The notes below the pieces were generated by a model that was not told the origin of the DNA, made no database searches, and saw nothing but the letters and a program-made list of their open reading frames with translations. Both the position numbers and the translations under genes were made by a program. 64,000 nt of DNA from a virus. Taxonomy: Duplodnaviria > Heunggongvirae > Uroviricota > Caudoviricetes. The first letter of the stretch is position 1, and each line of letters opens with the position of its first letter. The DNA is taken from the IMG/VR virus record IMGVR_UViG_3300027608_000017. The stretch is one strand, 5' to 3'. This document shows positions 5,569-40,500 of the stretch, one piece after another.

Positions 5569-5790
5569 TCATTTCGCACCCACTTCCGTGGTTTGAGTTT
5601 CCAGTGGCCGCGCGCGCGGAACGAACGTAAGTTCACCGCGATAGATCGCGACTTCCGGGCCGAAGTCGAAGCCGAGCCGCACGCGGTTGCCTCGGATCTC
5701 TTGGAATGAGACCGTGCCGATGTATTCCCCGGTGACGACGTTTGTCAGCCGGACTTCATTGTTTTTGAGATCGCGAGTTAGCACCAACAT
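5569..5790 (-). CDS. csrA: carbon storage regulator CsrA/RsmA homolog
   Basis: MLVLTR...GNRVRLGFDFGPEVAIYRGEL matches the CsrA signature and length; internal ATG of ORF 5569..5904. Confidence 0.7.
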   Translation of the reverse strand: MLVLTRDLKNNEVRLTNVVTGEYIGTVSFQEIRGNRVRLGFDFGPEVAIYRGELTFVPRARPLETQTTEVGAK

Positions 5791-5830
5791 GGTTTTCGAT
5801 TCCGTTCGTTTGTGAGTGAGTGAGTGAGTT

Positions 5831-6976: not shown

Positions 6977-8029
6977 TTACTTCTGGGCTGAATTGCCGAG
7001 ATCGCCGATCCGGGCGTCGAACGCGGCCATCGCCACCGACAGCTCGTTCTTCGTCGTGCCTTTGGATCCCCGCAGCTTGGCGAGCATCACGTCGGCTTCC
7101 TGTACTGACCGAGCGTCTTGGAGGTCGTACAGAAACTCGGAAAACGCGCCGGATTTCTCGGATTTATTGAGGGGCTGGTCGCCGTCGGATTCGCTCTCGC
7201 CGCGCTCGTCACTTTGGGGTTCGAGGTCCGCCACGGCTGAGGTCGTCTGGTGCGAGGCGCCTTCCGTGGCCACCGTAAAAGACGGCGATGGCTGCGATTC
7301 CTGTGTGATGCGGGCCGTCTTCTGTGCCGCCAGTCGCTCGGCGAGTGCGTCCTGCTTGGGCTTGGCCTCGGCGGCTTGGCTCGACTCGTGCTGATCGCGC
7401 AGGCGGTCCATCTCCTCCTTGCAGTACATCGCGGCCAGCGTGCTAGGGAACGCCTTGCGGAGTGCCGACGATTCCGCACATTTCACGATCATTCCCGCTG
7501 GGTCCGTCGCCCATCGGCTGCGGCCCGTGTTGAACGTGGATAGATTCAGTGAATCGTAGGACGCAATATTCCGGTCTCGGCGGTGAACTCGCGCCCACGC
7601 TCCAACCAGAACCTCGCCATTCAAAAGCAGATCACCCTGCCGCTCCGTGATGGCGTCTCCGCGAGCGACGACGACACCGGATTCCATGCCGTCAAATTCC
7701 GGGCTGGCCTCTGCTCGTTTGAGCATGGCCGAGTGAGCGGTGATGAGACTGAACTGTGGCCCATCCTTCCCGTCGTACCCGCATAAAAAACAGTCATTTG
7801 TCCACGGATTCAGGCTCTGCGCCTTCGAGAGCATAATGAACTTCATGACCTGCTCATCGGTCGGCAACTTCCCCGACTTCGTGGGGATGCACAAAAACTG
7901 CTTCACTCGCGAGAGCGTCAGGTGAATCTCCTCCTGCTCGCCAAGGGGGATGAAGCTGATGGTCTGCTCTTTCGGCCTGCTTGCGACAACAGACGTGTGC
8001 TGTGATGCGGTGGTAGTAGTCGTCGTCAT
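6977..8029 (-). CDS. recT: RecT-family single-strand annealing protein
   Basis: Resembles RecT/Bet; overlaps the downstream YqaJ gene by 4 nt, the classic RecT-exonuclease pair. Confidence 0.65.
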   Translation of the reverse strand: MTTTTTTASQHTSVVASRPKEQTISFIPLGEQEEIHLTLSRVKQFLCIPTKSGKLPTDEQVMKFIMLSKAQSLNPWTNDCFLCGYDGKDGPQFSLITAHSAMLKRAEASPEFDGMESGVVVARGDAITERQGDLLLNGEVLVGAWARVHRRDRNIASYDSLNLSTFNTGRSRWATDPAGMIVKCAESSALRKAFPSTLAAMYCKEEMDRLRDQHESSQAAEAKPKQDALAERLAAQKTARITQESQPSPSFTVATEGASHQTTSAVADLEPQSDERGESESDGDQPLNKSEKSGAFSEFLYDLQDARSVQEADVMLAKLRGSKGTTKNELSVAMAAFDARIGDLGNSAQK

Positions 8030-9033: not shown

Positions 9034-9222
9034 TCAAGGCACATCGCAATCCGCCTTCCTGAAGAACTCGCGCACCAGCCCGGCAAACGCCAGTGAGTAC
9101 GCGATCACCACACACGCCACCACGAACATCTCATCCATTGAGAACGGCATCAGTCGGATCCTTCCCCGTTGCGAGATGTGAAGGGCCGAGCCGGTTTCGG
9201 CTTCCCGTCGCAGTCGCAGCAT
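9034..9222 (-). CDS. small putative membrane protein
   Basis: Hydrophobic helix VVACVVIAYSLAFAGLV; weak. Confidence 0.25.
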   Translation of the reverse strand: MLRLRREAETGSALHISQRGRIRLMPFSMDEMFVVACVVIAYSLAFAGLVREFFRKADCDVP

Positions 9223-9239
9223 TGTTTTGAAAGTTCTGT

Positions 9240-9412
9240 ATTCCTCATGTGTGCTACTACGTGGAAATCGCTTGTCAGGCTCCTTTTATTTTGCCGAAAT
9301 CCAGATTTCTTCGCGCAGTTGACTTGTCGTGTGATGATGCAACAATTACGCAACGCTTCTGGAACACCGGAGGCGATTCCTAGAAAAACCGCAACAGAAG
9401 AAGGGGCGGAAC
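9240..9412. promoter_or_regulatory. divergent intergenic control region
   Basis: AT-richer 170-bp gap between minus- and plus-strand units; contains TTGACT...N17...ACAATT. Confidence 0.3.
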
Positions 9413-9772
9413 ATGGCTGTCGAGATGTGGACTGTGCAAGAGTTGGAGTTACTCGTCGAGGATGGAATCTCGGCCTTCAAACGCATCGGGGATGTGTGCA
9501 ACAAGATGCGACGAGCAGAGGTGAACGAGATCGCGCTCCAGGCCCGAACGGCCATGACGATCTACCGGCAGACACTGGTCAGACTCTCAGGGACCATCGA
9601 GTCCGAGTTCCAAGACCAGTTGAACTGCAAGCGCACCGGCATGACTCCGGCTTGGCAGATGAACCAGCGCAAGGTCGAGGCGGCCCGCAATCGCAAGGCC
9701 GCCGCCGCCAAAGACAAAGAGGAGCGGCGGAAGGACATCAAGCCACGCGAAGAAGAAGACGAGCGCAAGTGA
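9413..9772 (+). CDS. hypothetical protein, Lys/Glu-rich C-terminus
   Basis: 119-aa ORF after the divergent region. Confidence 0.45.
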   Translation: MAVEMWTVQELELLVEDGISAFKRIGDVCNKMRRAEVNEIALQARTAMTIYRQTLVRLSGTIESEFQDQLNCKRTGMTPAWQMNQRKVEAARNRKAAAAKDKEERRKDIKPREEEDERK

Positions 9773-9775
9773 GCC

Positions 9776-10216
9776 TCACGGCTGACTCGCGACGAGCTTC
9801 TTTTTGCGTCGCGAGTCCGAAGGGAACACCACGTCCACGATCACTGTGCCGGGGTTCGCCGCCTGCTGGGCCTTGGCGTGTTCGATGTCGTTGGTCTTGG
9901 CTATGGCGCAGTTGTGGGGAATGACGAGATACAAAGTGTCAGAGTCCGTTCTTTGAGAGTGGTAGTGGCAGAAATCTTGATCGCAAACATCGCGGGCCTG
10001 CTCACGGAGCGACTCCGCACGCCGTCCCATTTCGTCTTGAAATCGCCGCGAGAGTTCCAGCACCGGTGGGCCGGTGATGACGCCGCCGTAGAGGGTCTTT
10101 GATTCCAGTCTGGTGACGCAGATCGGGCAGATCGACCCGAGAATCAGATCGTGAACCCAGCCCGCCGTGGCGTCCGCAAACGGGCTGCTGATGTTGCAGT
10201 AGGAGCAATCGCTCAT
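9776..10216 (-). CDS. zinc-finger protein (CSYC...CPIC)
   Basis: ATG at 10216; upstream gene stop overlaps (ATGA). Confidence 0.45.
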   Translation of the reverse strand: MSDCSYCNISSPFADATAGWVHDLILGSICPICVTRLESKTLYGGVITGPPVLELSRRFQDEMGRRAESLREQARDVCDQDFCHYHSQRTDSDTLYLVIPHNCAIAKTNDIEHAKAQQAANPGTVIVDVVFPSDSRRKKKLVASQP

Positions 10217-10422
10217 GGCTTGTCCTTCAAGATCACGTTGCAGATTTCGATGAGCAGAGAACCATCCAGTGGGCCTTGCTTCAACATCAACATCATCCGC
10301 AGCCGCTGGACTTGCTTCGTCATCAACACGAGCTTGGCGCAAGTCCCCGTCATGCCGAGATGCTCGACCCACGGGACTCCACAAGATCGGCACGGCGGGA
10401 GGTCGTCAGGTTCGTCTTCCAT
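10213..10422 (-). CDS. small hypothetical protein with Cys pair
   Basis: 69 aa, translationally coupled to 9776..10216. Confidence 0.4.
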   Translation of the reverse strand: MEDEPDDLPPCRSCGVPWVEHLGMTGTCAKLVLMTKQVQRLRMMLMLKQGPLDGSLLIEICNVILKDKP

Positions 10423-10430
10423 GAAGTCAC

Positions 10431-10739
10431 CTACTCAATTGGGAATCGCGGCCGAACACCTTCCGACCAAAGCCTGCGGAACGTGTCTTCTCCGTCGTCG
10501 CCGCTCACCAGCCAATCGACGCGATGCACCATGTCGCCAACGCGACGCAGTTCGTGAGCCGTCTCGCGGAATCGAGCGAGGATGTCAGGCGGGAATGAGT
10601 CGTGGTGAGTGGGCGCGTACTTGGGGTCCACGTCCTCGTCGTACTCGATCGGCAATCCGCTGCGAGCGATCAGCTTGTCGAGCTGGTCCGCCATGTCCTC
10701 GAACCGATGCTGCTGATAGTCAAAGAATCCGCCGCTCAA
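10431..10739 (-). CDS. hypothetical acidic protein
   Basis: 102-aa ORF. Confidence 0.45.
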   Translation of the reverse strand: MSGGFFDYQQHRFEDMADQLDKLIARSGLPIEYDEDVDPKYAPTHHDSFPPDILARFRETAHELRRVGDMVHRVDWLVSGDDGEDTFRRLWSEGVRPRFPIE

Positions 10740-10757
10740 TTTCGCGTCTCCCCAAAA

Positions 10758-10800
10758 AACCGGCCGTGCGGGAGTTGAACCCGCCTACTGTTCTTCAACA
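10758..10800 (-). other. tRNA-like 3' fragment (T-arm GCGGGTTCAACTCCCGC plus 7-nt acceptor strand), followed by T6
   Basis: Canonical T-arm on the minus strand; no 5' acceptor partner or anticodon arm upstream, so not a full tRNA. Confidence 0.4.
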
Positions 10801-11144
10801 GCCACAACAAGATGCCCGCGCCACTGGCTTCGTGGCAGCTAACCACTACTGACTCCAGTGCCGCTTCCGGCAGAGATTGTCGCTGCGCTTCACCGCGAGC
10901 GCCCACGGCCACCAAACATCCTGTCGCGTCGATCCTTCGACGATCCCAACAATCCTTTCGGCCTCGTGCCGCTTAGGTACATCCGTGATTCATGGCCCGC
11001 ACCGCTTCCGACGCTGGGCAGGTTGGCCCGCGACGCGACTTGAGCAACAGACCTGCGGCGATCAGGCTCTCATCAGAGGCTTGACCCGCCAGCATCTGAC
11101 GGCGGAAGCAGGCCATGCACGCCGTGCAGACGCCGCGTCGCTCG

Positions 11145-11444
11145 CTATCTCGCACGCACTTCGGGACGAGACACTTGGAGCTTGAAGCGGGCTTCGAGGT
11201 TGCGCTGGGCTTGTGCGTAATCCGTCTGGTCATCTTTTCGATCCTTCGATGGTGCCTCGGGGGGGTTCTTCGCCGCTGGACGGAACGAGGCCGCGATCCA
11301 CGCCTCGGTCGTGCGGTAGCGCCCGCCGACCATGACCGCACACAGCAGGCCGGACTTCATCCAGCGCATGACCGTCTTCTCCGTGACGCCACAGATTTCG
11401 GCCGCTTGGCGAACTGTCGTTTGAGGCGTCATCGCTGCGTTCAT
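11145..11444 (-). CDS. xis: excisionase/AlpA-like HTH DNA-binding protein
   Basis: VRQAAEICGVTEKTVMRWMKSGLL...GGRYR matches excisionase-family HTH; next to the integrase. Confidence 0.55.
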   Translation of the reverse strand: MNAAMTPQTTVRQAAEICGVTEKTVMRWMKSGLLCAVMVGGRYRTTEAWIAASFRPAAKNPPEAPSKDRKDDQTDYAQAQRNLEARFKLQVSRPEVRAR

Positions 11445-11670
11445 GTCACGTTATCCTGTCGTTACCGTCGCGTTATCGTGATGATGTTTTTACAGAATGT
11501 TCTTAGATAAGTCAAACCATATTCTTTCCTCGCTCTCGCAGTGCCATTTGCTCTCTTGTTTTCGGGAAATCTCCGTAATGAGGCAAAATTCAATGGATAT
11601 TGCGGTAGCCGCCGCAATAATGTGACGAATCCGTTGCGTTTCCGTTATTTACTGATCACAGCGGAACTCA

Positions 11671-11731
11671 TGCGATTATGCGATTATGCGTGGGTATGTG
11701 GGTATGTGGGTATGTGGGTATGTGGGTATGG
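11671..11731. repeat. tandem repeats (GCGATTAT)x2.5 then (GGGTATGT)x5
   Basis: Perfect tandem octamers overlapping the start codon of the gene at 11728. Confidence 0.9.
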
Positions 11732-12072
11732 CTAAGAAAACGAAATCAGCAGAAACTCTCGTTGGAGCGGTTGCTCGCGCGATGCCGGATGGTCGCGTCA
11801 ATCCAGCCGACACCCGCAGGGGAATTGTCTCGATGCACGCTGTTTTGACAGACGTGCAGACGTGCCGAGATATCCTGGCGTACATCGAGGCCACGGCTAA
11901 GCTGGCGATCGACCGTGGTGCCGTCAGCTTGGAAACCGACGGCGTGACGCAGCTCGATGCGGCGAGGAAGCTCCTCGGCACGGCATCGGGGCATCTCGCC
12001 AAAGCCTACCTCAGCGACGTGGCATCACGGCGACCCCACAGCGAGACACACACAGTCACCGACACAGAATAG
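11728..12072 (+). CDS. hypothetical protein
   Basis: ATG at 11728; the ORF-track N-terminal extension is just a translation of the octamer repeats. Confidence 0.45.
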   Translation: MAKKTKSAETLVGAVARAMPDGRVNPADTRRGIVSMHAVLTDVQTCRDILAYIEATAKLAIDRGAVSLETDGVTQLDAARKLLGTASGHLAKAYLSDVASRRPHSETHTVTDTE

Positions 12073-12239
12073 CCACCCGGAATCTGAGACGCTTCTGAGA
12101 CGCTTTGCGAAGCACGAGAGACATGTCTAGCGGTTTTTTCATCATGTTCCCAACCAGACTGTCCGACACGCAAATGACGCAAATCACTCAAAAACAACAA
12201 CATACGTCAATTTTCGCCACAGAAACGGGTTGCTTCCCA

Positions 12240-12274
12240 AGCTTTAGACGGGGGTTCGATTCCCCTCACCCGCT
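12240..12274 (+). other. tRNA-like 3' fragment (GGGGGTTCGATTCCCCT T-arm plus CACCCGC acceptor); putative att core
   Basis: Perfect T-loop TTCGATT; no matching 5' half within 100 nt; 180 bp upstream of int. Confidence 0.45.
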
Positions 12275-12456
12275 TCGGTTTGCAATGTGTTGTGAGTGTT
12301 GATGTTGCGGCGAATCTTGGTAGTGAAATCTGACGGCGGGCTGAGACGGTTTTTTGGAGTGGTGAGACGCTTTCGGATGCAGCGGAAATTTGCCCGCAAC
12401 ATCCCGCAGCATCCCGCAATTTGTCCGCACAACATCCCGCAGCCAGTTGACTCGCC

Positions 12457-13668
12457 ATGAGGACGCCACCGACACAACTGAAGCAGGACAAGACCACTGG
12501 CCGCGCGTTTGCACGCTGGCAGGGCAAGAAAGTCTACTTCGGTAAGTGGGACACCGCCGAGGCTTCCAAGGCGTTCGGGGCTTGGCTGGCAGGGTTGCAC
12601 GCCACGCCGACGGCACCGGACCTGTCACAGAACCTGACCGTCTTGCAGTGCGTCGAGCAGTACCTCTACCACGCCGAGTCCTACTACTCGAAGGACGGGC
12701 AGACGACGCAGGAGTACCGGAACGTCTGCGCGGCGATGCAGACGCTGATCTGGCACGCGGGGGGGCCAAAGGATTTGGCGCGGGACTTCGGGCCACGGAA
12801 GCTGATCGCGCTCCAGAAGGCGATGGCGACTGAGACGGTTTCTGAGACGGTTTCGACGCTGCGATATGCGCGGAACACGATCAACTCGCGGATCGGCAAA
12901 ATCCGACGCTGCTTCCGCTGGTGCGCGGCACAGGAGCTGATCCCGGCCGAGATCGTGACAGCCTTGGAGATGGTGGACGGCGTGCCCGAAGGGCGTGGGA
13001 TGGCGCGGGAGTCGCCGGAGGTCGGGTCGGTCACGATCGCGACCGTGATCGCGACGTTGCCGCATCTCTCCCCCACTGTCGCGGCAATGGTGCAGGTCCA
13101 GCTCCTCTGTGGGATGCGCCCGCAGGACGTGTGTGGCATGACCTGGGGGCAGATCGATCGCACGGGCGATGTCTGGCTGTACCGCCCGCTGCGGCACAAG
13201 ATGCAGCACAAGCGGCAGTCGCTCGTGAAGGCGATCCCCGTCGCCGCGCAGCAACTGCTGACACCACTACTGCGGGAGGGACGCGACGAGCTGATCTTCT
13301 CGCCGGTCGATGCCAGCGAGTTCTGGCGGTCACAGGAGCGGAAGCCGCGCACAGTGCCGAAGGTGCGGGAGTGCGCGCGGGGGCCGTATGCGACCAGCGC
13401 CTACGGGCGAGCCGTGGTCTACGCCATCGCTCGGGCGAACAAGTCGGGCGCGACGGTGCCGCACTGGACGCCCAACCAGCTACGACACGCCATCGCCTCG
13501 CAGTTGCGGGGAACGAGCGGGATCGAGGCGGCGCAGGTGTTTCTCGGCCATGCCAAGCCCGACGCGACGCTCATTTATGCGGAGCAGTCGGAGGCGCGAT
13601 TGATTGAGATCGCGCGGGCGCTGGTTTCACCGCTTCCCAGTCCGTCTCCTGCGGCGAAAACTGACTGA
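12457..13668 (+). CDS. int: tyrosine-type site-specific integrase
   Basis: C-terminal box II LRHAIASQL...GIEAAQVFLGHAKPDATLIYAE with catalytic Tyr. Confidence 0.9.
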   Translation: MRTPPTQLKQDKTTGRAFARWQGKKVYFGKWDTAEASKAFGAWLAGLHATPTAPDLSQNLTVLQCVEQYLYHAESYYSKDGQTTQEYRNVCAAMQTLIWHAGGPKDLARDFGPRKLIALQKAMATETVSETVSTLRYARNTINSRIGKIRRCFRWCAAQELIPAEIVTALEMVDGVPEGRGMARESPEVGSVTIATVIATLPHLSPTVAAMVQVQLLCGMRPQDVCGMTWGQIDRTGDVWLYRPLRHKMQHKRQSLVKAIPVAAQQLLTPLLREGRDELIFSPVDASEFWRSQERKPRTVPKVRECARGPYATSAYGRAVVYAIARANKSGATVPHWTPNQLRHAIASQLRGTSGIEAAQVFLGHAKPDATLIYAEQSEARLIEIARALVSPLPSPSPAAKTD

Positions 13669-13834
13669 CCACGGCGATGTGCCCGGTCAGATCCTTGATC
13701 GCTCGCGCCGCAGACAGCGCCTCACTGGCCGAGGCGTAGACCGCCAACCCTACGCGCCAAAACGATGAGATACACATTGTGGCCCCTTTTGTATTCACAG
13801 CAATCCAGCACACCAGACAGGCGAGAGTCGAGCT

Positions 13835-13876
13835 GGCTTGAATTGGCTTGAATTGGCTTGAATTGGCTTGAATTGA
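13835..13876. repeat. tandem repeat (GGCTTGAATT)x4
   Basis: Four perfect decamers 165 bp downstream of the int stop; candidate arm-type binding sites. Confidence 0.9.
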
Positions 13877-14130
13877 TGATCAAAGAGTACGCAGCAGGAA
13901 ATCCGATTACCACAGTGGCTGGCTGGAATTAATGCGCCGCAGATTCGATGCAGCCGCTCAGGCCTCGCCGCCTACCATTGGGATCGCCTTGACGATTCCG
14001 TAAAGTCCTGGATACTGATGACGCCAGCCACACGAGCCGCCGTCGAAAATTCCTCTTGGAGCCAATGAAGGAGGTGATCTCACGATCAGCAATTCCGTGT
14101 GGCTGGCGCTTCTCTTTCTAAGGCAATCCC

Positions 14131-14625
14131 TTGCAAGTCAACTTCCAGAATCTCGGGCGTCACATCACTTGGCGCAACGGCTTGTTTGCCGCCGCCGCCC
14201 TCTTGGCTGTGGTCTGCGTGGCCAACGTCTCCGGCGCACGAGCCTACTCGGCCAGCGCGGAGGCCGACCCTGCGATTGCCCTACAGGGCTGGCTCTTGTC
14301 GGTCGCTCCCGGTGCCTTGGCGGCGCTGGCGGGCCTCGTGGCGAGCTTCCTCGGCGTGCCGCCCGAGTACGTCGCGGCGATGAAAGCCTTCGCGAAGAAT
14401 CCGGACCTCGAAGCGATCGAGAAGCGGGCCGTCAACGCCGCGTTCGAGTTCATTCTCCCTCGGTTCGGTAAGTACCCGGAGCTACTGATGTCGCTGCTCC
14501 GCACCATAGCCCCACAGTTCGTCAGCGATCCCGAAGTCGCGAAAGCCATCTCGGCCCTCGGGCAAGCATTGGCTAAGAACTTCCTGTCTATTCCGGCTCC
14601 AGAGTCTGAGGTGCGCAAGACGTGA
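14131..14625 (+). CDS. hypothetical membrane protein
   Basis: N-terminal helix LFAAAALLAVVCVANV, helical C-terminus. Confidence 0.5.
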   Translation: MQVNFQNLGRHITWRNGLFAAAALLAVVCVANVSGARAYSASAEADPAIALQGWLLSVAPGALAALAGLVASFLGVPPEYVAAMKAFAKNPDLEAIEKRAVNAAFEFILPRFGKYPELLMSLLRTIAPQFVSDPEVAKAISALGQALAKNFLSIPAPESEVRKT

Positions 14626-14694
14626 TCGAGGCGACGCGCGAAGCGGAAGACGGGTTGTACCGGTTGTGTTACAGGCTCCAGTGGAAATCGGATC

Positions 14695-15096
14695 ATGCGG
14701 CGAATTGTTCCGTGCCTAATTTTTGTGCTGGTGGGCTGCTTTCAGCCAGCACTGCCAGTGCGCCAGTTCGATCCCACGCGGCCCGCGACGCCGACGCCGA
14801 TCGTTGTGACGCCACAACTGCGCGACGACGTGTTCCATCCCGCCAGTCAGTCCCAGTCACTGGCTCGGCTCGCCCAGAGGCAGTCTGAATCCGCTTCGGT
14901 CACGGATGGATCACGCCGACTCGATGCCGTGCTGAACGAGTTGGTGCGCGATGGCGTCCCCGCCGACTACTGCGCCCGCGTGCGGCTGGCGGTCACGGAT
15001 GACACCGGCAAGCCGGTAATCCGCGTCGCGACGAAGCTGGCCCCCGCCCGCAATCTCACCGAGGCGGAAATCAAGAAACTTGAGGCCGCGCGATGA
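14695..15096 (+). CDS. putative lipoprotein
   Basis: Signal peptide with lipobox-like LVGC. Confidence 0.5.
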   Translation: MRRIVPCLIFVLVGCFQPALPVRQFDPTRPATPTPIVVTPQLRDDVFHPASQSQSLARLAQRQSESASVTDGSRRLDAVLNELVRDGVPADYCARVRLAVTDDTGKPVIRVATKLAPARNLTEAEIKKLEAAR

Positions 15097-15554
15097 TCGA
15101 CGCCGGAACCAGTGTCGCGATTCGCTGGCTCGTGCAACGCGACCTGAAGGCCGTGGTGACGATCGAAGACAAGTGCTTTGCGTTCACTTGGTCCGCTGCG
15201 GACTTTCTGGAATGCCTGCGACAGCGCAACGCCATCGGGATGGTGGCGACGCGGGATGAGCGTGTGGTGGGGTTCATGGTCTACGAACTGCGCAAATCAG
15301 AACTACACATCCTGAACTTTGCGGTGGACCCCGAGTTGATGCGCACCGGCGTCGGCACGGCGATGCTCGACAAGCTGAAAGAGAAGATTCGGCAGCAGCG
15401 GCGGACGGTGATTACGGTCGGAGTGCGCGAGTCGAATCTCGCCGCCCAACTGTTCTTTCGCAACGCCGACTTCCTTTGCATCGGCACGGTGCGCGGATTC
15501 TACCAGCAGACCGACGAAGACGCCTACATTTTTCGTTGGGCGTTGCCCGTGTAA
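15093..15554 (+). CDS. GNAT family N-acetyltransferase (RimI-like)
   Basis: Acetyl-CoA motif RTGVGTAMLDKL; ATGA overlap with the upstream gene. Confidence 0.75.
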   Translation: MIDAGTSVAIRWLVQRDLKAVVTIEDKCFAFTWSAADFLECLRQRNAIGMVATRDERVVGFMVYELRKSELHILNFAVDPELMRTGVGTAMLDKLKEKIRQQRRTVITVGVRESNLAAQLFFRNADFLCIGTVRGFYQQTDEDAYIFRWALPV

Positions 15555-15557
15555 GGA

Positions 15558-16577
15558 GTGGCGATGGCCGACTTTTCAGATTTCCCAACCGGCTACGTGG
15601 ACTCCCCCAAGGCGCGCGAGGTCCAGCTCGATGCGTTCGCAGCGGCGGGCGTAGACCTGACGACGCGCACCGTGGCGGGCGAGTTCCAGCGGCTCGTCTC
15701 ACAGGGTGTCTCCTACGTCAATCTCCATGACGCCGAGGCGGACTTCATCCGTGGCGCGGGAGCGGGGCTAGTCCGTTCTCTGCGCAACATCACCCCCTGC
15801 GGGATTCTGGAGCCGTTCGGCCAGCAGACCGGCATCTGCAACGGGTGCAGTCACTCGACGGGTGCCTGGCTGTCGTGGTGCAACCGGTTCGTGGCGTCGG
15901 GGGACTGTCCGACGCCGCGTGAAGTGACGTTTCTGGGCGGATACTTGCTCGGCCGCGAGCTGACGATGCTGTCACGAGGCGACTCCGGGGCGTTCCCGTC
16001 GTACACCATCGCCGGGTTTCACGACTTCGGCGTGTTGCCCGTGGACTGTGGCGGCAAGTTCAACTTCCGCGCACTGCCGCCCCACGGACCCACCAGCCAA
16101 GAGTCGCTCTGCGTGCAAATGCGCGACCGACCGGCCCTCTATCCCGAGTGGCTCGAAGCGATGCACCCGCTCAAGACCCGCGTCTTCCAGCCGACGAACG
16201 AAGCGGCCGTGCTGGACTGTCTCGCCAGCCGGTATGCCGTCACGTTTGGCTCGTCGTATCAGGCGCGGGACTCGTCGCGTGCCAATCCCGTGTCGGCGCT
16301 CTACATGCTCACCGATGGCTGGGGGCGACCGGCCGGACACGAGACGTGCGGGAGCGGTTTCTTCGTCTATCGCGGCCGCGCGGGCCTGCTCAAGACCGAG
16401 TCATGGTGGAACGCCAATCAGTACCCCGGCGGCGACCATCACGAGAAGCGGGTCGTGATCCAGACCGACAGCGGACCCCGCCAGTTGTATCGCGGCCAGT
16501 GCGCCATCTGGGCGGACGAGTGGCTGCGATCGAAACCAGAATCATGGGCCGTCGGCTGGCCGGGATCGGCGGCATGA
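15558..16577 (+). CDS. hypothetical protein, Cys-rich, with GDSGAF motif
   Basis: 339-aa ORF. Confidence 0.5.
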   Translation: MAMADFSDFPTGYVDSPKAREVQLDAFAAAGVDLTTRTVAGEFQRLVSQGVSYVNLHDAEADFIRGAGAGLVRSLRNITPCGILEPFGQQTGICNGCSHSTGAWLSWCNRFVASGDCPTPREVTFLGGYLLGRELTMLSRGDSGAFPSYTIAGFHDFGVLPVDCGGKFNFRALPPHGPTSQESLCVQMRDRPALYPEWLEAMHPLKTRVFQPTNEAAVLDCLASRYAVTFGSSYQARDSSRANPVSALYMLTDGWGRPAGHETCGSGFFVYRGRAGLLKTESWWNANQYPGGDHHEKRVVIQTDSGPRQLYRGQCAIWADEWLRSKPESWAVGWPGSAA

Positions 16578-25168: not shown

Positions 25169-25933
25169 GTGACCGCTTCAACCGCACAACCGAGACGATA
25201 CCGCGAGCAGCAGGCTGCTGAGCGTCCGTCGCTTGGCCCGTATCGACCCGTCACCGAGCCGTCGCGGATTCAGGGATCGCAGCGACTTGTCGTGACCATC
25301 GCCACGGGCGAGAAGTATCTTGCGATTTTGGGTTTGACTCGCCGACCAATGCAGGACTACTCCGAGCGCTGCGGCGCAGACTTCATCGAGATTACTGACA
25401 GCACGCAGGACTGGCCGCTCTACGAGAAGTTCCGGTTGCGAACGATTGCCGAGCGTTACGACCAGACGCTGTTTCTGGACGCGGATTGTCTCGTTCGCCG
25501 CAGGTGCCCGAACCTGTTCAGGATGTTCCCGAGCGGCGTGGCGATGCGCGATGACGCCTCGCTTTGGCCTGCCGATTGGATGCAGGCCCGTTGGACTGCG
25601 GTGATGTCGTCGCAAGGGATTGCTCGGTCGTTGCAGGAGCCGATCCGAGCGTGGAACACGGGTGTCGTGCTGTGTGACCGCGACCATGCGTTCTTGTGGG
25701 AGCCGCCAGAGCGACCGCTATCGGACGGGCACGAGTCAGAGCAAGTTTGGGTGCAGGCGACTCTGCAAGATCGGCTCGTCGAAGTGCAAGACATCGGGCC
25801 GGGATTCAATGACCAATACTACTACCCGACCTTCCGTCAAACCCTACCGCAGACGCAGATCGCTCACTTCGCACTTTGCCCTGACCGGCTGAACGAGATC
25901 GCGAAACTCAAAGCGGAATGGTGCCAGCCGTGA
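25169..25933 (+). CDS. putative GT-A fold glycosyltransferase (DXD)
   Basis: VVTIATGEKYLAI...TLFLDADCLV; family not assigned. Confidence 0.45.
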   Translation: MTASTAQPRRYREQQAAERPSLGPYRPVTEPSRIQGSQRLVVTIATGEKYLAILGLTRRPMQDYSERCGADFIEITDSTQDWPLYEKFRLRTIAERYDQTLFLDADCLVRRRCPNLFRMFPSGVAMRDDASLWPADWMQARWTAVMSSQGIARSLQEPIRAWNTGVVLCDRDHAFLWEPPERPLSDGHESEQVWVQATLQDRLVEVQDIGPGFNDQYYYPTFRQTLPQTQIAHFALCPDRLNEIAKLKAEWCQP

Positions 25934-27456
25934 ACGAATCAGAAGCTCTCTTGAAGATGGTCTCGCCGCGTGATCGGCGTCCCGGCGCTTGGCGTGGCGG
26001 TGTGATGCAGATCATGGTCACGCGCGCTTGCGACAAGGCGTGCTTCGGCTGTACCCAAGGGAGCAATCTGGGCGGCAAGCCCGTGTTCATGTCGCCGGAT
26101 CAGTTCGAGGAATCTCTGCTCTCGCTCAAAAGCTACTTCGGCGTGATCGCGCTGTTCGGCGGCAACCCGGCCATTCACCCGCAGTTCCCTGAGCTGTGCC
26201 GAATCATGCGTCAGCACGTCCCGTATGCTCAGCGCGGCTTGTGGTGCAACCATCCGCTGGGTCACGGCGCGTTGATGCGCGAGACGTTCAACCCTTCTGT
26301 CAGCAACATCAATGTGCATCTCGATCCAGAGGCTCGGGCCGAGTTCGAGCGGGACTGGCCGGAGAACACACGGCTGCTCGGGACCGACACAGACTCACGT
26401 CACAGCCCGCCGTTCGTCGCGATGCGGGACGTGATCGCCGATGAGTCCGAGCGATGGGAGTTGATCTCAAACTGTGACGTGAATCAGCGGTGGTCGGCAC
26501 TGATCGGCGTGTTCCGGGGCGAACTGCGAGGCTACTTCTGCGAGTTGGCCTACGCTCAGTCCGCACTCCATCAGCACGAGCCGGACTATCCCGACACGGG
26601 CCTGCCGATCTCTCCCGGTTGGTGGGATCAGGGGATGGACGACTTCGCTTCGCAGGCCCGCAAACACTGCCACGACTGTGGCATTCCGTTGCGTGGTCAC
26701 GGAGAATTGGCCATCGGCGGACAGACCGAGCAAGTCAGTGCGACTCACGCCGCAGCGTTCCACCCGAAGCGACGAGACCGGGCTGTCGAACTGGTTCAAC
26801 TGCGAACGCAGCTTGGCGCGACGCTGGACGTGGCGACGAACTACATCGAGAACGCGACGCGGATTGCGGAAGCCCCTGCTGCCGCACCGCCGGTCGATCT
26901 GGATTGCAACCCGCACACTGAACCCAGTGTCGCGGGTCTGATTCGCACGACACGCCGCGAGCTGGCTCGGATCATCGAACTGCTGCCGCCGAACGCGCGT
27001 CTGCTGGAGATCGGCACGGCCAGCGGAGGCACCGCCGCCCGGATCGCCGACGCCCGCCCTGACGTGCAGATCACCTGTATCGACATCTTCGCGGAATGGC
27101 CCGATCACTCTGTCATGCACCGGCCAGCCAACTGGAGGACCAACCAGCGGCCGAACATGCACCTCTGGGTGGGCGATGTCGCCAGCTACGCAGCCCAATG
27201 CGGGGTACTGTTTGACGTGGTGCTGATCGACGGCGACCACACCGAGGCGGGTGTCTCGCGTGACTTGGTGACGGCTCCCGAGTTGCTGGCTCCAACAGGT
27301 CTGCTGCTCGCGCACGACTACACCGATCCGAACTGGCCCGGTGTCCGAGCGGCGGTGGATCGGTTTTGCGATCAGGCATCGCAGAGCCACGACCACATTT
27401 TAGGTGGATGGAGAGTCGAGGAATGCTGCTGGTCCTTGGCAGTGCTTCGTCGATGA
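25918..27456 (+). CDS. fusion protein: N-terminal radical-SAM-like domain plus C-terminal class I SAM methyltransferase
   Basis: CDKACFGC (CxxxCxxC) followed by LFGGNPAIHP; C-terminus LEIGTASGGTA (motif I) and FDVVLIDGDH. Confidence 0.6.
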   Translation: MVPAVNESEALLKMVSPRDRRPGAWRGGVMQIMVTRACDKACFGCTQGSNLGGKPVFMSPDQFEESLLSLKSYFGVIALFGGNPAIHPQFPELCRIMRQHVPYAQRGLWCNHPLGHGALMRETFNPSVSNINVHLDPEARAEFERDWPENTRLLGTDTDSRHSPPFVAMRDVIADESERWELISNCDVNQRWSALIGVFRGELRGYFCELAYAQSALHQHEPDYPDTGLPISPGWWDQGMDDFASQARKHCHDCGIPLRGHGELAIGGQTEQVSATHAAAFHPKRRDRAVELVQLRTQLGATLDVATNYIENATRIAEAPAAAPPVDLDCNPHTEPSVAGLIRTTRRELARIIELLPPNARLLEIGTASGGTAARIADARPDVQITCIDIFAEWPDHSVMHRPANWRTNQRPNMHLWVGDVASYAAQCGVLFDVVLIDGDHTEAGVSRDLVTAPELLAPTGLLLAHDYTDPNWPGVRAAVDRFCDQASQSHDHILGGWRVEECCWSLAVLRR

Positions 27457-29186: not shown

Positions 29187-30686
29187 GTGACGCCTTTCCA
29201 ATTCTTTCTCGATGTCGGCACACCCAGACGGCTGGATGCGCCGCTCATCTTGTCTGGCGTCACGCTGGCGTCGGATGTCGCCGTCGCGCTCAATGTCGTG
29301 GCTGCGCCGACGCTCTCAGATGTCACGCTGGCGTCGGACCTCGCGCTGGGCCTGTCTCTGGTCGCGGCTCCGGCACTCGGCGATGTCAGCCTGTCCAGCG
29401 AACTGGCCGTGGGATTGGCTGTGTCCGCGAGCGCCACGCTGGGCGACGTGGTGCTATCGAGCGCTCTCGCGACGGATGTCGCGCTGGTGTCCGCAACCAC
29501 GTTGGGCGACGTGACGCTCAGCGGTAATCTCGCGGTCGGGCTGGCTCTGGTGTCCGCGTCCACACTCGGCGATGTGACACTCAGCAGCGACGTGGCATCC
29601 GCGTCCGCACTGATGGCGGCCGTGGCCCTAGATGGCGTCACGCTGACGAGTGACCTCGCCGTCGAGCTGGCATTGAGCGCGACAGCCACGCTCGATGACG
29701 TGACACTGACGAGCGGCCTGACGGCGGAAGCCGCGCTGGTCGCGGGAATCACGCTGGAGGGCGTGACACTGTCGTCCGCCGCCACTGTGGGCCTGTCGCT
29801 CACCGAGAGCGCGACGCTGGCCGATGTCGTGCTGTCCAGCGACGTGACCGCAGTCCTCGCGCTGGTGGTGAACACGACGCTGGCGGGAGTGAGTCTGTCG
29901 AGCGACGTGATCAGTGCAGCGCCGGTCGTCGTGACGCTGGATGACGTGACCTTGACGGGTGCTTTGGCCGTCGCGCTGGACCTCGTATCGGCCCCGACGC
30001 TCGACAGTGTGACGCTGGCAGCCAGTGCGATGGTCGGAGTCGAGATTACCCACACGGCCACGCTCGGCGATGTTGTTTTGGTCGGGTTGGTCTCGGTCGG
30101 GTTGGTCTCGGTCGAGTCGGCAGTGGGGCTGTCTGTCACGCTGGACGACATGACCACAAACGCCACGGCGGCGGCGGGGATCGCGATCGGCGGGGTGATC
30201 GCACTGGAGAACACGTCTCTCGGGTCAGGCACAATCCGTGGACTGGTGTCGTGCGGCCTGTCGGCTACGCTCGACAACATCGTCTGCGTCTCAGAACCGG
30301 AGGAGAATTCACTCGGCACGCTCTGCGTCGCCGCGTCGCAAGTCGTCTCTTCGGGCGCGGCGCAGGTCCGCGTGCTGTGCCCCGAGGTGAGTGCCAGTCA
30401 GATCACCCATCTGGACGCCGCGCAGGTGCGGGTACTCTGTCTGGGGCTGAGTGCCGATCAAGTCGCCTGCTTGGACGCGGTGCAGGTCCAGATCCTGTCT
30501 CCGGGGCTGAGTGCCGCTCAAGTCCTCTATTCAGACGCCGCGCAGGTCCGGATACTGCACCCCGAGTTGGTCGCGGGTCAAATCGCCTATTTGGGCGCCG
30601 CGCAGGTCCGGGTACTATGTCCGGGTCTAAGTGCTGGTCAAATCGTCTACGGTGGCTCCGTCGCCGCCGTCTCTGGCTGTCCATAG
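29187..30686 (+). CDS. tandem-repeat protein: about 15 x 20-aa repeats then 6 x 20-aa Cys-containing repeats
   Basis: Repeat A consensus TLGDVTLSSDLAVGLALVSA; repeat B AAQVRVLCPGLSAGQIAYLD; plus strand chosen from context and beta-strand-like periodicity. Confidence 0.55.
   Translation: MTPFQFFLDVGTPRRLDAPLILSGVTLASDVAVALNVVAAPTLSDVTLASDLALGLSLVAAPALGDVSLSSELAVGLAVSASATLGDVVLSSALATDVALVSATTLGDVTLSGNLAVGLALVSASTLGDVTLSSDVASASALMAAVALDGVTLTSDLAVELALSATATLDDVTLTSGLTAEAALVAGITLEGVTLSSAATVGLSLTESATLADVVLSSDVTAVLALVVNTTLAGVSLSSDVISAAPVVVTLDDVTLTGALAVALDLVSAPTLDSVTLAASAMVGVEITHTATLGDVVLVGLVSVGLVSVESAVGLSVTLDDMTTNATAAAGIAIGGVIALENTSLGSGTIRGLVSCGLSATLDNIVCVSEPEENSLGTLCVAASQVVSSGAAQVRVLCPEVSASQITHLDAAQVRVLCLGLSADQVACLDAVQVQILSPGLSAAQVLYSDAAQVRILHPELVAGQIAYLGAAQVRVLCPGLSAGQIVYGGSVAAVSGCP
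29230..30130. repeat. 60-bp tandem DNA repeats, about 15 copies, about 70% identical
   Basis: Period-60 recurrence of gacgtgacgctg...gcg. Confidence 0.8.
30330..30660. repeat. second 60-bp tandem repeat array (about 6 copies)
   Basis: gccgcgcaggtccgggtactgtg...ctgagtgcc..tcaagtc recurs six times. Confidence 0.8.
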
Positions 30687-37542: not shown

Positions 37543-40500
37543 ATGCCCGCTGATTTCCTCGAAGCCCTCGCCGTTGCCGCCGCCCATTACCTGCCCGAGC
37601 ATGAGTTTTCGGCAATGCCAGCCGATCTACCGCAGACGAAATATACAGGGAACAAGCCATACACAGGGAAGTTGCCGACCGGAACGGTAGGGCGCAAAGT
37701 CGCCTTACCTCCACCGCCACTCATCCACGGGACGGACGCCGCCGGATACCGGACTTCATTCGCGCCGACAGGCGGCGCGACCAAGGCAGCGGCCGATCCA
37801 TACACGGGCACATTCGGCCCGAAGCCACCTCCACCGCCAGAGATGGTAAGATTGAAGGAGCCGAGTCACTCGGACTTCCAAGTGCCGTTCCCCGCTGACG
37901 CACACCGCGAACACCTCAGTGGCCTGGCCAGCATAGCAAAAAGCAATCCGGCGGCACTCCACCGGGACGATCACGCGGCCCTGTTGAGGCACTTCAGCAC
38001 TCAGGCAAATCGGTTCTCCGATCGCGTCAAACGCGGCGAAAAAGTATGGCAGGGCGAGGCCGATCACTTCCAAGATGCCTCGCGAAGCCTGTCGAACCAC
38101 ATGACCAGGCAGCAGCAGTTTTCTCGGCGATCCACCCCCGAGGAGATCGCGGCGAACGAAGCCGAGCCGACGCATATCCGGCGTCTCAAGATGCCGGACC
38201 ACAAGGATTTCCATTCCGGCTATAGCTACGGCGAGACGTTTCACGGGCACGTCAACGACATGGCCGACCTGGCCGTAGCTGACCCGAGCCGCATTCACCC
38301 CGACGACCATCCGGCACTGCATCACTATTTCGGGAAAAATCTGCACATCAAGCGCATGGGGCAGGCGTCCAAAATTCTGCGGGAACATGCCGCCAAGTCA
38401 GCAGAGTCAGCCAAGAAGCCATCGCCGCAGAAGCCCAACTATCGCGTGACGTTCTCGCGCGAGGAGACGGCGACGGAGTTCGCCCGCAAGGCCAAACCCG
38501 CCGCCGGTCAGAAGTCGATGTTTGGCGATGACGACGACGAGCCGAGCGCACCCGCTCCAGCACCAGCGGCGCAGGCGATCACACCCACCAAGGCCGGTGC
38601 CGGAGACTGGGACGAAGACTTGCACCCGCGCGGCGATCACGGCAAGTGGGCGCTGGCGGAATCGCACGAGCCGCAGCCGAACCACATCCACGCTGACGTG
38701 CGCGACCACGAAGGCGAGACGATGGGCTATCTCTCGCATCCTCACGACGGGACGACGAATGGCATCCGCGCGGCCCACGCCGAGGCCAAGGAGGGGTTGA
38801 CCTCGGCCGGTCACGACTGGTCGAGTCCTCACACTCGCTGGGGCGCGACAGACCACACTGGGGAGCCACGGCATCACATCAGTCACGACGGCCAGCAATT
38901 GACGGACGTGGCCGATCCCCGCAACGCCCAGCGCGGCCCAGGTGGCTTTGAGGCACCGCCGAAGAAGGCGCGACCAGCACCATACCCGAAGGCGCCGGAA
39001 CGAGAAGACCGCAAAGCGGAAAGGGAAAGCGCATTCTATCCCAAGCAGGCAGCGGAGCCAGCCATCCCCGCCGACCTCGCCGAAAAGTACCCGTCGTTGG
39101 TGGAGCCGCACGCCGCTGCCCCCGAGCCGGAGCAGCACTGGTATGGGATGCACAACCGCCCGCCCGCGATCGGCGCGATCCCCAAGGGGAACTACGACCA
39201 CAAGCCCCACGACGAGTTCCGGCACGGGCAGATTTCGTATGGCAGGCCGCTCACTGAAAAGGAGCAGTACGACTACGAACTGACTCCGATTCGCAACGAT
39301 TCAGAAATTCCCGCGCTGGCGAGGGGCGTTGCCGAACGAATGGGACCGTACGTCGCGAAGTATTTGGCACCGGGCGCAGAGAAGCTGCTCAATGGGTTTC
39401 TCCGCCATGGACAATCCGCAAAAGATCTTGGGCACGTCGATCCCGAGAAGATTAAGGCCGAACTGCGGAAACAGCACGGATCAACCGAATCCACTCCCAG
39501 CGTCGCGGCCCAGGAGGAAGCTCCAGTCGGGAAACCGGCGAGCGACGCGCAGGAGGGGGCCAGTGACGGCCGGGAATCCGTAAGCAACGACACGCTGTTC
39601 AAGCGATCCGGCCAGCAGTTCGAGGAAATTCAAAAGTCACTCGGCATCACCAAGCCGCAGATGGGACAGCAGGGAGCCGACGCCGTGCGCAAGGCTTTGG
39701 CGTCTCGCGTCGGCGGCCCCGTGATCGCCGAGATGCTCAAGGTCCACGAGCATAGCCCGGACGCATTCGCGAGACACGGATTCGCCACCGGCACCGAGGC
39801 TTATCGCGACTCGCTGAGTGGGAAGTTCTCGAAAGAGCAGTTGCTCGACGCCTCGCGATTCGCGGCCGGACACGAAAACGGCGATATGTCGCGGTTCGTG
39901 CGCGACAGCATTCGCGGCGCGACAGCGACAGACGGTGGTGTTAGCGCCGAGGACCACGCACGCGCGCATCAGGCTGGCAGCCTAGATCGTCTCGCGAAAT
40001 CGCAAGGCGCAGATGAGGCGAAGGCGACGAAGCGGCAGGCCGATGATTTGATGGTTCCGTCACCGCCCGCGTCAGGTGACGCGAATCATGGCTCGCCAGC
40101 TTCTTCCGAGGCTGACTCAGAATGGAACCACCAGCACTCCGACCAAGAGAAGGGCTATCGAGAGCAGGAGCGGACGTTTAGCGAGGTCATGAATGATCCG
40201 AGCAAGTCGTCGCTGAGGGATTTGACGCTGGCGTATGGACAGGGCACGCACCTGATGCGGCACTGGGACCGTCGCGCCGAACGCGGAGAGATCACAGCCC
40301 AGCAGCGCGACGACCACAATGACGGGATGCGGCGTGAACTCGACCACATCAGTAGCCTCCAGAGGGACTACATCAACGGGCGGAAAGCCGCGCCCGCCGA
40401 CGACATGAGCCGCGCCGAGAAGATTGCCGAAGAGGCGTATCACTCGAAGACGCCGCTGGAGTCAGTCGCTCGCAACATGGGATTGACCAAGAGCGAATGG

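Follow-up and report, generated by a model that had tools for sequence, protein, structure and literature searches.

Introduction

Integration into tRNA or tmRNA genes by elements that bring along their own copy of the tRNA 3' end is described in the Islander database paper (PMC4383910), and the integrase of phage mv4 has the 3' end of a tRNA-Ser gene as its target (bioRxiv 10.1101/2023.11.06.565760). A review of group I introns in the tRNA genes of bacteria and phages is also available (PMC3984707).

Here we analyzed a stretch of 64,000 nucleotides from a virus of the Caudoviricetes (IMG/VR record IMGVR_UViG_3300027608_000017), the whole of which is called the window in the following, and concentrated on the region around its integrase gene int. 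Taken together with the tandem arrays and the tRNA-like gene as interpreted below, this region is very probably the module by which a temperate phage of Schlesneria (Planctomycetaceae) integrates and excises, seen here as non-integrated attP. Apart from the tRNA-like gene nothing in the region is unusual, and the att module is routine. The tRNA-like domains of tmRNA and of the bacterial Y-RNA-like YrlA combine an acceptor/T-arm mimic with a long helix at the position of the anticodon arm.

Results and Discussion

The recombination site and the integrase gene are located as follows; related loci carry L numbers.

12232..12275, + strand: attP common core, 44 bp (identity to host tRNA-Gly(CCC); the homology to L002 and L030 starts exactly at 12232)
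12457..13668, + strand: tyrosine integrase, N-terminal domain predicted to bind arm sites (PF00589, phrog_1)

The core matches the last two-thirds of tRNA-Gly(CCC): it sets in at anticodon-stem positions 30-31 and reaches the discriminator U73 plus one further base. The original prediction had placed a tRNA 3' piece at 12240-12274; the piece is real but was drawn too short, as the identity begins at 12232 in the anticodon stem. Its proposal to look for bacterial tRNA genes with a matching 3' end proved fruitful: a 43-mer of the core occurs exactly in 21 genome contigs, 20 of them having it inside a complete tRNA-Gly(CCC) gene, and the 21 include six contigs from four Schlesneria MAGs as well as one Planctomycetaceae MAG. 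Partner att sites were sought in Schlesneria MAGs and metagenomes. L002 and L030 represent attL, showing planctomycete host genes, then a complete tRNA-Gly(CCC) gene and then DNA that is 95-99% identical to the window from 12232 on, with 95-96% identity for the int DNA. Empty attB sites are present in L025 and L017, an attR remnant in L027 begins with the core and runs on into the host right flank, and L006 is the attL form of a related phage; an attR joined to the phage left arm was not recovered among these Schlesneria MAG and metagenome sites. The core regenerates the tRNA 3' end on integration. The integrase would recombine it with its identical counterpart in the 3' region of the host tRNA-Gly(CCC) gene; the phage copy would then restore the tRNA, and int would lie about 180 bp downstream of the tRNA. 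Among 80 relatives obtained by a metagenome scan, most loci with enough upstream DNA have int 120-330 nt downstream of a tRNA gene or tRNA 3' fragment on the same strand.

The attP of L005 and the attL of L006 are identical across 4.64 kb except for core offset 16, and because of this single-base difference strand exchange probably takes place 3' of the variable loop in that phage. By analogy the same may apply to the phage of the window, the placement being derived from a single SNP in another member of this phage family. A crossover in the anticodon loop had been suggested by the identity starting 2 nt before this loop and was dropped on the L005/L006 comparison.

The view that attP lies here within a phage genome was borne out, with attB, attL and attR counterparts found for the tRNA-Gly(CCC) piece and phage genes on both sides. 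RecT, YqaJ and DnaB are encoded to the left of the module and a terminase-like gene to the right. The two tRNA pieces had also been described as flanking both the xis-like gene and int. T arms are indeed present at both places (12250-12266 on the plus and 10768-10784 on the minus strand) and are the only such hairpins in the window, where 1.33 are expected by chance, so that the hairpin alone is not beyond chance; the plus-strand piece, however, lies between xis and int, and thus the two pieces do not bracket both genes. IMG/VR scans with both tRNA pieces, with the frame of the tRNA-like gene and with int relatives gave nothing useful, the phage family being essentially absent from IMG/VR in these scans, and blastn in distant mode of 10400-14300 against an annotated phage collection returned the tRNA-Gly piece as its only match.

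The integrase matches the Pfam family Phage_integrase (PF00589) at 2.5e-13 as well as phrog_1, and R221, R343, H365 and Y374 are invariant in an alignment of 12 sequences. Its AlphaFold model (pLDDT ~90) begins with three strands (residues 9-11, 16-21 and 24-30) and a helix (34-47) followed by a flexible linker, and full-length lambda Int chains were the best Foldseek matches for this model; a sequence search of the PDB gave weak Xer-type catalytic matches only. From the model we predict a lambda-type tyrosine integrase of two specificities with a separate arm-binding N-terminal domain. Candidate binding sites for this domain share the motif TGAGACGSTT.

12085..12105, + strand: P-arm pair of candidate arm sites, TGAGACGCTT x2 (-147 and -136 from the core start)
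12342..12372, + strand: P'-arm pair of candidate arm sites, TGAGACGGTT and TGAGACGCTT (+110 and +131)
12831..12852, + strand: third motif pair, inside int (hypervariable linker encoding TETVSETVS)

Six exact copies of the motif are present in the 64 kb, all on the plus strand and within 12085-12852, where 0.43 are expected, and none of 100 shuffled sequences reached six. The P'-arm pair is also retained in the integrated forms L002 and L030. The offsets -147, -136, +110 and about +130 are kept in L005, L007, L009, L035, L038 and L118 while the motif changes, for example to TGAGACA in L005 and TGGATAC in L009, meaning that over seven loci the spacing is fixed and the motif covaries. Position, orientation and conservation across the family suggest that TGAGACGSTT represents the arm-type sites of Int, a function read from the comparative layout. 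The N-terminal domain would then bind four direct sites, two about 140 bp to the left and two about 70-90 bp to the right of the core, and it may in addition bind the two copies located inside int. This third pair is conserved in L002 and L118, the linker length varies across the integrase family, and the pair may be either an extra arm site or a coincidental duplication.

Three small genes are found to the left of the core.

11145..11444, - strand: xis-like HTH_17 gene, candidate excisionase or regulator (PF12728 at 1.1e-8)
10973..11233, - strand: small Cys-rich ORF downstream of xis (tblastn matches in L005, L007, L008 and L009)
11728..12072, + strand: orfX, small ORF between xis and attP (ATG start at 11728)

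The product of the xis-like gene scores 28.3 bits against TIGR01764 ('excise'), just below the cut-off of 28.8, and matches phrog_66 ('excisionase and transcriptional regulator'). The position of the gene is kept in L004, L005, L007, L009 and L118. This divergent HTH_17 gene is a likely candidate for the excisionase. The true start of orfX is ATG 11728, since the starts MAKKTK and MVKKTK of the window and L034 align; orfX also has a weak tblastn match in L004. The Cys-rich ORF was not called in the source record. No protein-family matches were obtained for orfX, the Cys-rich ORF and a gene of 164 aa after int in Pfam, NCBIfam and PHROG-type searches.

All three perfect tandem arrays of the original prediction are present.

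11670..11730, + strand: two perfect octamer arrays, ATGCGATT x2.6 (11670-11690) and GTGGGTAT x5.1 (11690-11730), in the 5' leader of orfX
13834..13875, + strand: perfect decamer array, TGGCTTGAAT x4.2, in the intergenic region downstream of int

The octamers had been seen as overlapping a gene start, which holds for the start of the longest ORF at 11686, but they lie just upstream of the real ATG. The proposal that the arrays are arm-type sites of the integrase did not survive the comparison with sibling phages: the arrays are missing there although the neighbouring DNA is 87-98% identical, and it is TGAGACGSTT instead that has the expected position, orientation and conservation. L034 has single, unrepeated versions of the octamers and L118 has none, while the independent contig L011 breaks within the octamer array. 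The decamer array has about six copies in L002, amounting to a 20-nt length difference. Neither L118 nor L030 has it, and in L118 the homology is interrupted at 13793-13978. The three units are located about 500-560 bp to the left and about 1,560 bp to the right of the core, the latter beyond int. Judged by these comparisons the arrays are strain-specific simple repeats and not arm sites; they would represent recent slipped-strand expansions in non-coding DNA that take no part in recombination.

The minus-strand tRNA piece, previously regarded as lacking a 5' half like its plus-strand counterpart, turned out to be the 3' end of a longer gene whose acceptor 5' strand and D arm are found at 10911-10885. 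The original prediction had named a complete tRNA at this place as its own refutation, and this outcome was obtained in a modified version, a complete but odd tRNA-like gene.

10760..10911, - strand: tRNA-like gene of 152 nt (ARAGORN with introns, MFE fold, descriptor, covariation)
10754..10759, - strand: T6 run directly after the tRNA-like discriminator (T5 in relatives)

The gene has an acceptor stem of 7 bp (TGGCCGT/ACGGCCG) followed by G73, a D arm GCGC-TCGCGGTGAA-GCGC with its GG, a variable-arm hairpin and a T arm GCGGG-TTCAACT-CCCGC with a TTCRANY-type loop. An irregular hairpin of 77 nt (33 nt in L118) replaces the anticodon arm. The only possible anticodon stem, GCGAC/GTTGT, has its strands 70 nt apart. 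ARAGORN finds no tRNA in the window under default settings and calls this gene at the default threshold when introns are allowed; a 'tRNA-Arg' obtained with relaxed settings and without introns was poor, stood among obvious false calls and was discarded. The unconstrained MFE fold is a cloverleaf, and a descriptor for the gene gives 0.33 hits per 1.04 Mb under the null. In an alignment of five sequences all 78 cells pair and 10 of the 16 pairs show double-sided changes; the fold is supported by four independent sequence variants. Folded alone, the 3' 119 nt reach a z-score of -1.77 only. Variants exist in several planctomycete phages, with lengths of 152 nt in the window and near-identical relatives, 133 nt in L118 and 170 nt in L007, and the best of the Rfam scores, tRNA-Sec with 22.5 bits, stays below the gathering score of 47, giving no family match. 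After the T6 run come GGGGAGA and then the next gene to the left, which starts with TTG at 10739, and a scan for intrinsic terminators found none at this 3' end. The gene would sit in a leftward early operon as a class II (Ser-like) frame with a long hairpin in place of the anticodon arm.

With these data the other possible readings of the region can be weighed. Both tRNA pieces could be att cores, of which one is in present use and the other a relic or an alternative target as originally suggested, with the arrays as arm-type sites of the integrase. Both pieces do have canonical T arms, the arrays are perfect and within 2.2 kb of int, and short-period arrays are also found downstream of int in L003 and L009. 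We nevertheless regard this as extremely improbable, as the minus-strand piece belongs to a complete gene with its own 5' half and covarying stems, has no TGAGACG sites nearby and lies on the strand opposite to int, unlike every att tRNA of the integrase family. Searches of 185,579 species genomes and of 241 million metagenome records gave no exact match to a 24-mer of it, and viral contigs gave none to a 26-mer, whereas the tRNA-Gly core has its 21 matches in the same genome collection. The array units, moreover, are unrelated to each other, and L034 and L118 lack the octamer arrays and keep all arm sites. It is also highly improbable that the window is part of a prophage or plasmid-like element integrated elsewhere, its attP being intact but not the site in use. 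Such a reading could draw on the fact that the inspected part amounts to about 70 kb of the 113-kb source contig, excluding the right-hand 6.7 kb and most of the left 42 kb, but every inspected flank carries phage genes, with DnaB and an ART-PolyVal giant protein to the left and a terminase-like gene to the right, and L002 and L030 show almost the same int and attP DNA inserted at tRNA-Gly.

For the 152-nt element, drift of a dead Ser- or Leu-like phage tRNA whose anticodon arm was wrecked by an insertion is unlikely, even though a 7-nt anticodon loop with U33 is missing, the inserted arm varies in sequence and length (61 nt in the window, 53 nt in L118, 75 nt in L007) and L005 has a normal, intact tRNA-Leu(CAG) at the same position and in the same orientation. 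A drifting pseudogene would be expected to lose its pairing, while in the small sample of four variants the acceptor, D and T stems are fully paired despite many double-sided changes between lineages, and the pair T67-A79 in the tip of the long arm becomes C-G in L115. A decoding tRNA from which the 61-nt insert is removed as an intron after transcription appears very unlikely. ARAGORN with its -i option does call a tRNA-Met (CAU) with a class II-like product of 91 nt at the default threshold, but its assignments in relatives are inconsistent (Met, Pro, Gly), no way of cutting out the insert yields a loop with both U33 and a purine at 37, and the insert matches no ribozyme family. The introns known from bacterial tRNA genes all belong to group I and measure some 200 nt or more, compared to 61 nt here. 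An archaeal-type bulge-helix-bulge intron was discarded as the internal loops do not fit the motif, and so was a small self-cleaving ribozyme in the insert, for which there was no Rfam match.

The tRNA-like gene most likely acts through a structured RNA and not as a tRNA that decodes, for example as a processing signal for RNase P and RNase Z or a chargeable tRNA mimic. SerRS and LeuRS do not read the anticodon. More tentatively, the gene and its variants might represent an undescribed class of phage-borne, non-decoding tRNA mimics with a class II frame under compensatory change and a fast-evolving long hairpin. Such an RNA might punctuate processing in the early operon, or serve as a decoy or adaptor that can be charged. 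If real, the tRNA-like gene matters more than the att module, and a tRNA frame under selection without an anticodon loop would point to a non-translational use of the tRNA shape by phages. As standard tRNA finders miss the 152-nt gene, similar genes may be widely overlooked.

The att module shows textbook biology, in a host that has been little studied. For a planctomycete phage family it provides a precise attP/attB pair, an arm-site motif and the assignment to a host (Schlesneria, tRNA-Gly CCC); the att pair could become an integration tool for a phylum poor in genetic tools and permits clean calls of prophage boundaries in planctomycete genomes. More generally, evidence for arm sites comes from a spacing that is fixed across relatives and not from perfect tandem arrays close to int.

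Comparison with known systems

Compared to phage lambda, the integrase shares the catalytic domain and the predicted N-terminus of a three-stranded sheet and a helix, full-length lambda Int being the best structural match, and the locus shares direct-repeat candidate arm sites on both sides of the core and a divergent small HTH gene as candidate Xis. In contrast, the two integrases are only about 14-16% identical in structural alignments, the phage of the window targets a tRNA gene while the attB of lambda is intergenic, and two putative arm sites are located on each side at fixed offsets with an additional pair inside int. From the elements of the Islander type there is no difference in principle: the 44-bp copy restores the tRNA, the displaced original marks the other end as seen in L027, and int lies beside the regenerated tRNA. 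For the host (Schlesneria, Planctomycetota) and this integrase clade, a literature search found no earlier description. Like mv4, this is a temperate phage with a tRNA 3' end as attB, but Int and attP of mv4 are described as atypical for heterobivalent integrases (10.1101/2023.11.06.565760) whereas the layout in the window looks conventional.

The 152-nt gene resembles phage tRNA genes in having acceptor, D, variable and T arms and a place in the early operon, and differs from them in having no anticodon stem-loop and in being missed by default ARAGORN and Rfam. With tmRNA and YrlA, to neither of which it has an Rfam match, it shares the combination of an acceptor/T-arm mimic with a long helix in place of the anticodon arm. 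It is, however, far shorter than tmRNA and lacks a tag reading frame, it forms the acceptor stem from its own 5' and 3' ends in contrast to YrlA, and it has retained a genuine D stem as well as a variable arm of class II.

Results and Discussion

As the original prediction held, the integration module is flanked by phage genes on both sides, with RecT and YqaJ exonuclease genes to the left and a clamp-like gene, a 2655-aa ORF and a terminase-like gene to the right. The window is part of a 113-kb ENA contig whose 8 kb past the window's left end encode DnaB and a giant ART-PolyVal protein, showing that phage genes carry on there.

Features of the integration module (window coordinates)
10911-10760, minus strand: putative tRNA-like gene, 152 nt
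11145-11444, minus strand: xis-like HTH_17 gene (profile match)
11670-11690: octamer array, ATGCGATT x2.6, perfect
11690-11730: octamer array, GTGGGTAT x5.1, perfect
12232-12275: common core, 44 bp
-147, -136, +110 and +131 from core start, plus strand: candidate arm-type sites, motif TGAGACGSTT, oligo form TGAGACGCTT
12457-13668, plus strand: int (Pfam Phage_integrase, 2.5e-13)
12831-12852 (+599 and +611 from core start), plus strand: third motif pair, inside int, encoding TETVSETVS
13834-13875: decamer array, TGGCTTGAAT x4.2, perfect

Two tRNA T-arm pieces, on the minus (10758-10800) and plus strand (12240-12274), had been proposed as att cores. T-arm-like hairpins, searched for as a 5-bp stem with a TTCRANN loop, number exactly two in the window, one at each of these places, but simulated sequence yields 1.33 per window and a T arm by itself is therefore not beyond chance. 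Aligned to tRNA-Gly(CCC), the plus-strand piece spans the anticodon stem to the discriminator, so that its extent had been understated. In a genome scan a 43-mer of the core had 21 exact matches, 20 of them within complete tRNA-Gly(CCC) genes, including six contigs of four Schlesneria MAGs and one of a Planctomycetaceae MAG. Comparison with four of these host contigs defined the common core and gave counterparts for the different att forms.

Forms of the att site
attP: the window, phage DNA on either side of the core
attL: L030, from a MAG labelled Schlesneria paludicola, whole tRNA followed by 1441 nt at 94.7% identity to the window from 12232 (Int 96.9% identical)
attR remnant: L027, same MAG, core at the contig start followed by host DNA
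empty attB: L017 (again from that MAG) and L025 (from a second Schlesneria MAG), tRNA between the left and right flanks of the host

The ENA contig L002, encoding an Int 96% identical to that of the window, carries a complete tRNA-Gly(CCC) (9748-9818) with planctomycete host genes (FG-GAP, SBP_bac_10, TPR) on one side and DNA continuing exactly as the window from 12232 on the other. The attP call is thus correct, with direct comparative proof: the plus-strand piece is a true attP core, lying inside a phage genome as proposed.

The crossover could be placed in a related phage present as attP form (L005) and attL form (L006). From the core start the two match throughout 4.64 kb apart from core offset 16 (L005 9846, L006 26), which is T in attP and G, the host version, in attL. 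[quoted passage not shown]

The motif TGAGACGSTT occurs in six exact copies in the window (0.43 expected; none of 100 shuffles reached six), all on the plus strand within 12085-12852. The four flanking offsets are found again at the att regions of the relatives L005, L007, L009, L035, L038 and L118, and the motif itself differs between them, being TGAGACA in L005 and L038 and TGGATAC in L009. Such constant spacing with a covarying motif is the pattern that should be expected of arm sites read by a co-evolving protein domain. In the structure model of Int, residues 9-47 form a three-stranded sheet and a helix at the N-terminus (pLDDT about 90), with a flexible linker after them; in structural comparison the model matched full-length lambda Int chains best. 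The motif pair within int, kept in L002 and L118, maps to a hypervariable linker of the protein whose length varies.

The three perfect tandem arrays exist as claimed, but their assignment as arm-type sites does not hold. L034, 98% identical to the window in the adjoining left arm, has single unrepeated versions in place of the octamer arrays, and the comparison also shows that the small ORF next to them (orfX) starts at the ATG at 11728. The sibling phage L118 is 87–91% identical over 9054-15600 and retains all six TGAGACG sites without any octamer or decamer array, the sole homology gap to the window (13793-13978) being the decamer region. About six decamer copies are found in L002, and the resulting 20-nt length difference rules out coding. 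L030 departs from the window directly past the int stop codon. The arrays are thus strain-specific simple-repeat expansions in non-coding DNA, which on these comparisons are not required for recombination. As L003 and L009 have short-period arrays of other sequences after int, this intergenic spot may be prone to repeats. A separate Logan contig from this phage (L011, 1-30) is broken within the octamer array, hinting at assembly difficulties or a heterogeneous copy number at that place. The L034 contig breaks near the orfX 3' end, shortly before reaching the arm sites and attP.

The minus-strand piece had been described as lacking a 5' half and as a possible former or alternative att site. ARAGORN at default settings found no tRNA or tmRNA in the whole 64 kb, Rfam matched only a 17-nt hairpin in the piece, its 24-mer had no exact match in genome and metagenome collections, and nothing in distant relatives could be aligned to the region. 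The idea of an isolated T arm was dropped on two findings. The corresponding gap downstream of xis in the related phage L005 holds, on the same strand, a normal 90-nt class II tRNA-Leu(CAG) (7173-7262, minus strand; 34.1 bits against Rfam tRNA, which exceeds the gathering score). Alignment of the gap in the intermediate relatives L115, L116, L118 and L119 revealed a partner for the 3' strand ACGGCCG in TGGCCGT, 150 nt upstream of it, and in L118 both acceptor strands are swapped for CAGTCGC/GCGACTG. With this 5' acceptor strand and a D arm, the 5' half is present, and without constraints 10911-10760 folds as a cloverleaf.

Parts of the tRNA-like gene (5' to 3', minus strand)
Acceptor stem: 7 bp
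D arm: GCGC-TCGCGGTGAA-GCGC
Anticodon-arm position: 77-nt irregular hairpin
3' part: variable-arm hairpin, T arm, then G73 and T6

Long tRNA-like genes of 133–170 nt are found in the window, L118 (4849-4981), L007 (3040-3209, minus strand) and L115 (1125-1276), all with conserved acceptor, D and T stems and an oversized hairpin for the anticodon arm, and missed by default tRNA finders and Rfam. When introns are allowed, ARAGORN does call the gene of the window as well as those of L115 and L007 at the default threshold, and that of L118 only at a relaxed one. A descriptor combining T arm, 7-bp acceptor and D arm with GG, searched over 1.04 Mb, returned genuine tRNAs and the long tRNA-like elements only (null rate 0.33 hits). 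In a trimmed frame of five sequences pairing is kept in all 78 cells, with both sides changed in 10 of 16 pairs, which none of 500 shuffles reached. Whichever way the insert is excised, a normal anticodon loop does not result, and the gene fits no Rfam family.

An att relic is argued against by the 5' half, the strand opposite to int, the missing arm sites nearby and the lack of a bacterial tRNA match (24-mer, exact matches in genome and metagenome collections). We therefore discarded it, and 10760-10911 is read, from sequence and predicted fold, as a putative functional, non-decoding tRNA-like RNA, the one feature of the module meriting further work.

Several further observations were made. 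Three GTTATC/GTTACC copies (11453-11480, 11–12 nt spacing) adjoin the start of xis, within the promoter region that the divergent xis and orfX share, and are possible operator sites. After the last arm site and ahead of the int ATG lies CAACATCCCGCA x3 (12397-12441), in a ~70-nt stretch that may be an int regulatory insert; it is missing in L005, L007 and L009, where int begins directly after the arm site. The early-left operon of the phage family repeatedly carries small CsrA-like genes (window ~5577-5798, minus strand; leftward operons of L004, L005, L007 and L009). One ORF (25918-27456) has a radical SAM and a class I methyltransferase domain, a 499-aa ORF (29187-30686) contains a tandem repeat with a 60-nt period (30356-30649, x4.9, 70% matches), and the 2655-aa ORF (37543-45510) lies where the AT skew is strong (up to +0.43). 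The ART-PolyVal protein near DnaB, just outside the window's left end, has 3160 aa. In L059 (Ga0208645_1000278, about 12.6–16.1 kb) four extra T-arm-like hairpins lie 2.5–6 kb downstream of a related int, one belonging to a 91-nt class II-like tRNA missed by ARAGORN.

Conclusion

From metagenomes 80 integrase relatives were recovered, and in most loci with enough upstream DNA a tRNA gene or a tRNA 3' fragment lies on the same strand as int, 120–330 nt ahead of it, the tRNAs being Gly, Pro, Val, Met, Asn, Ala, Asp, Phe, His and Lys. Integration into tRNA genes with the element restoring the split gene is a known mode (PMC4383910), and the integrase family described here follows the same mode; the att module is a routine case of this known type in an under-studied host.
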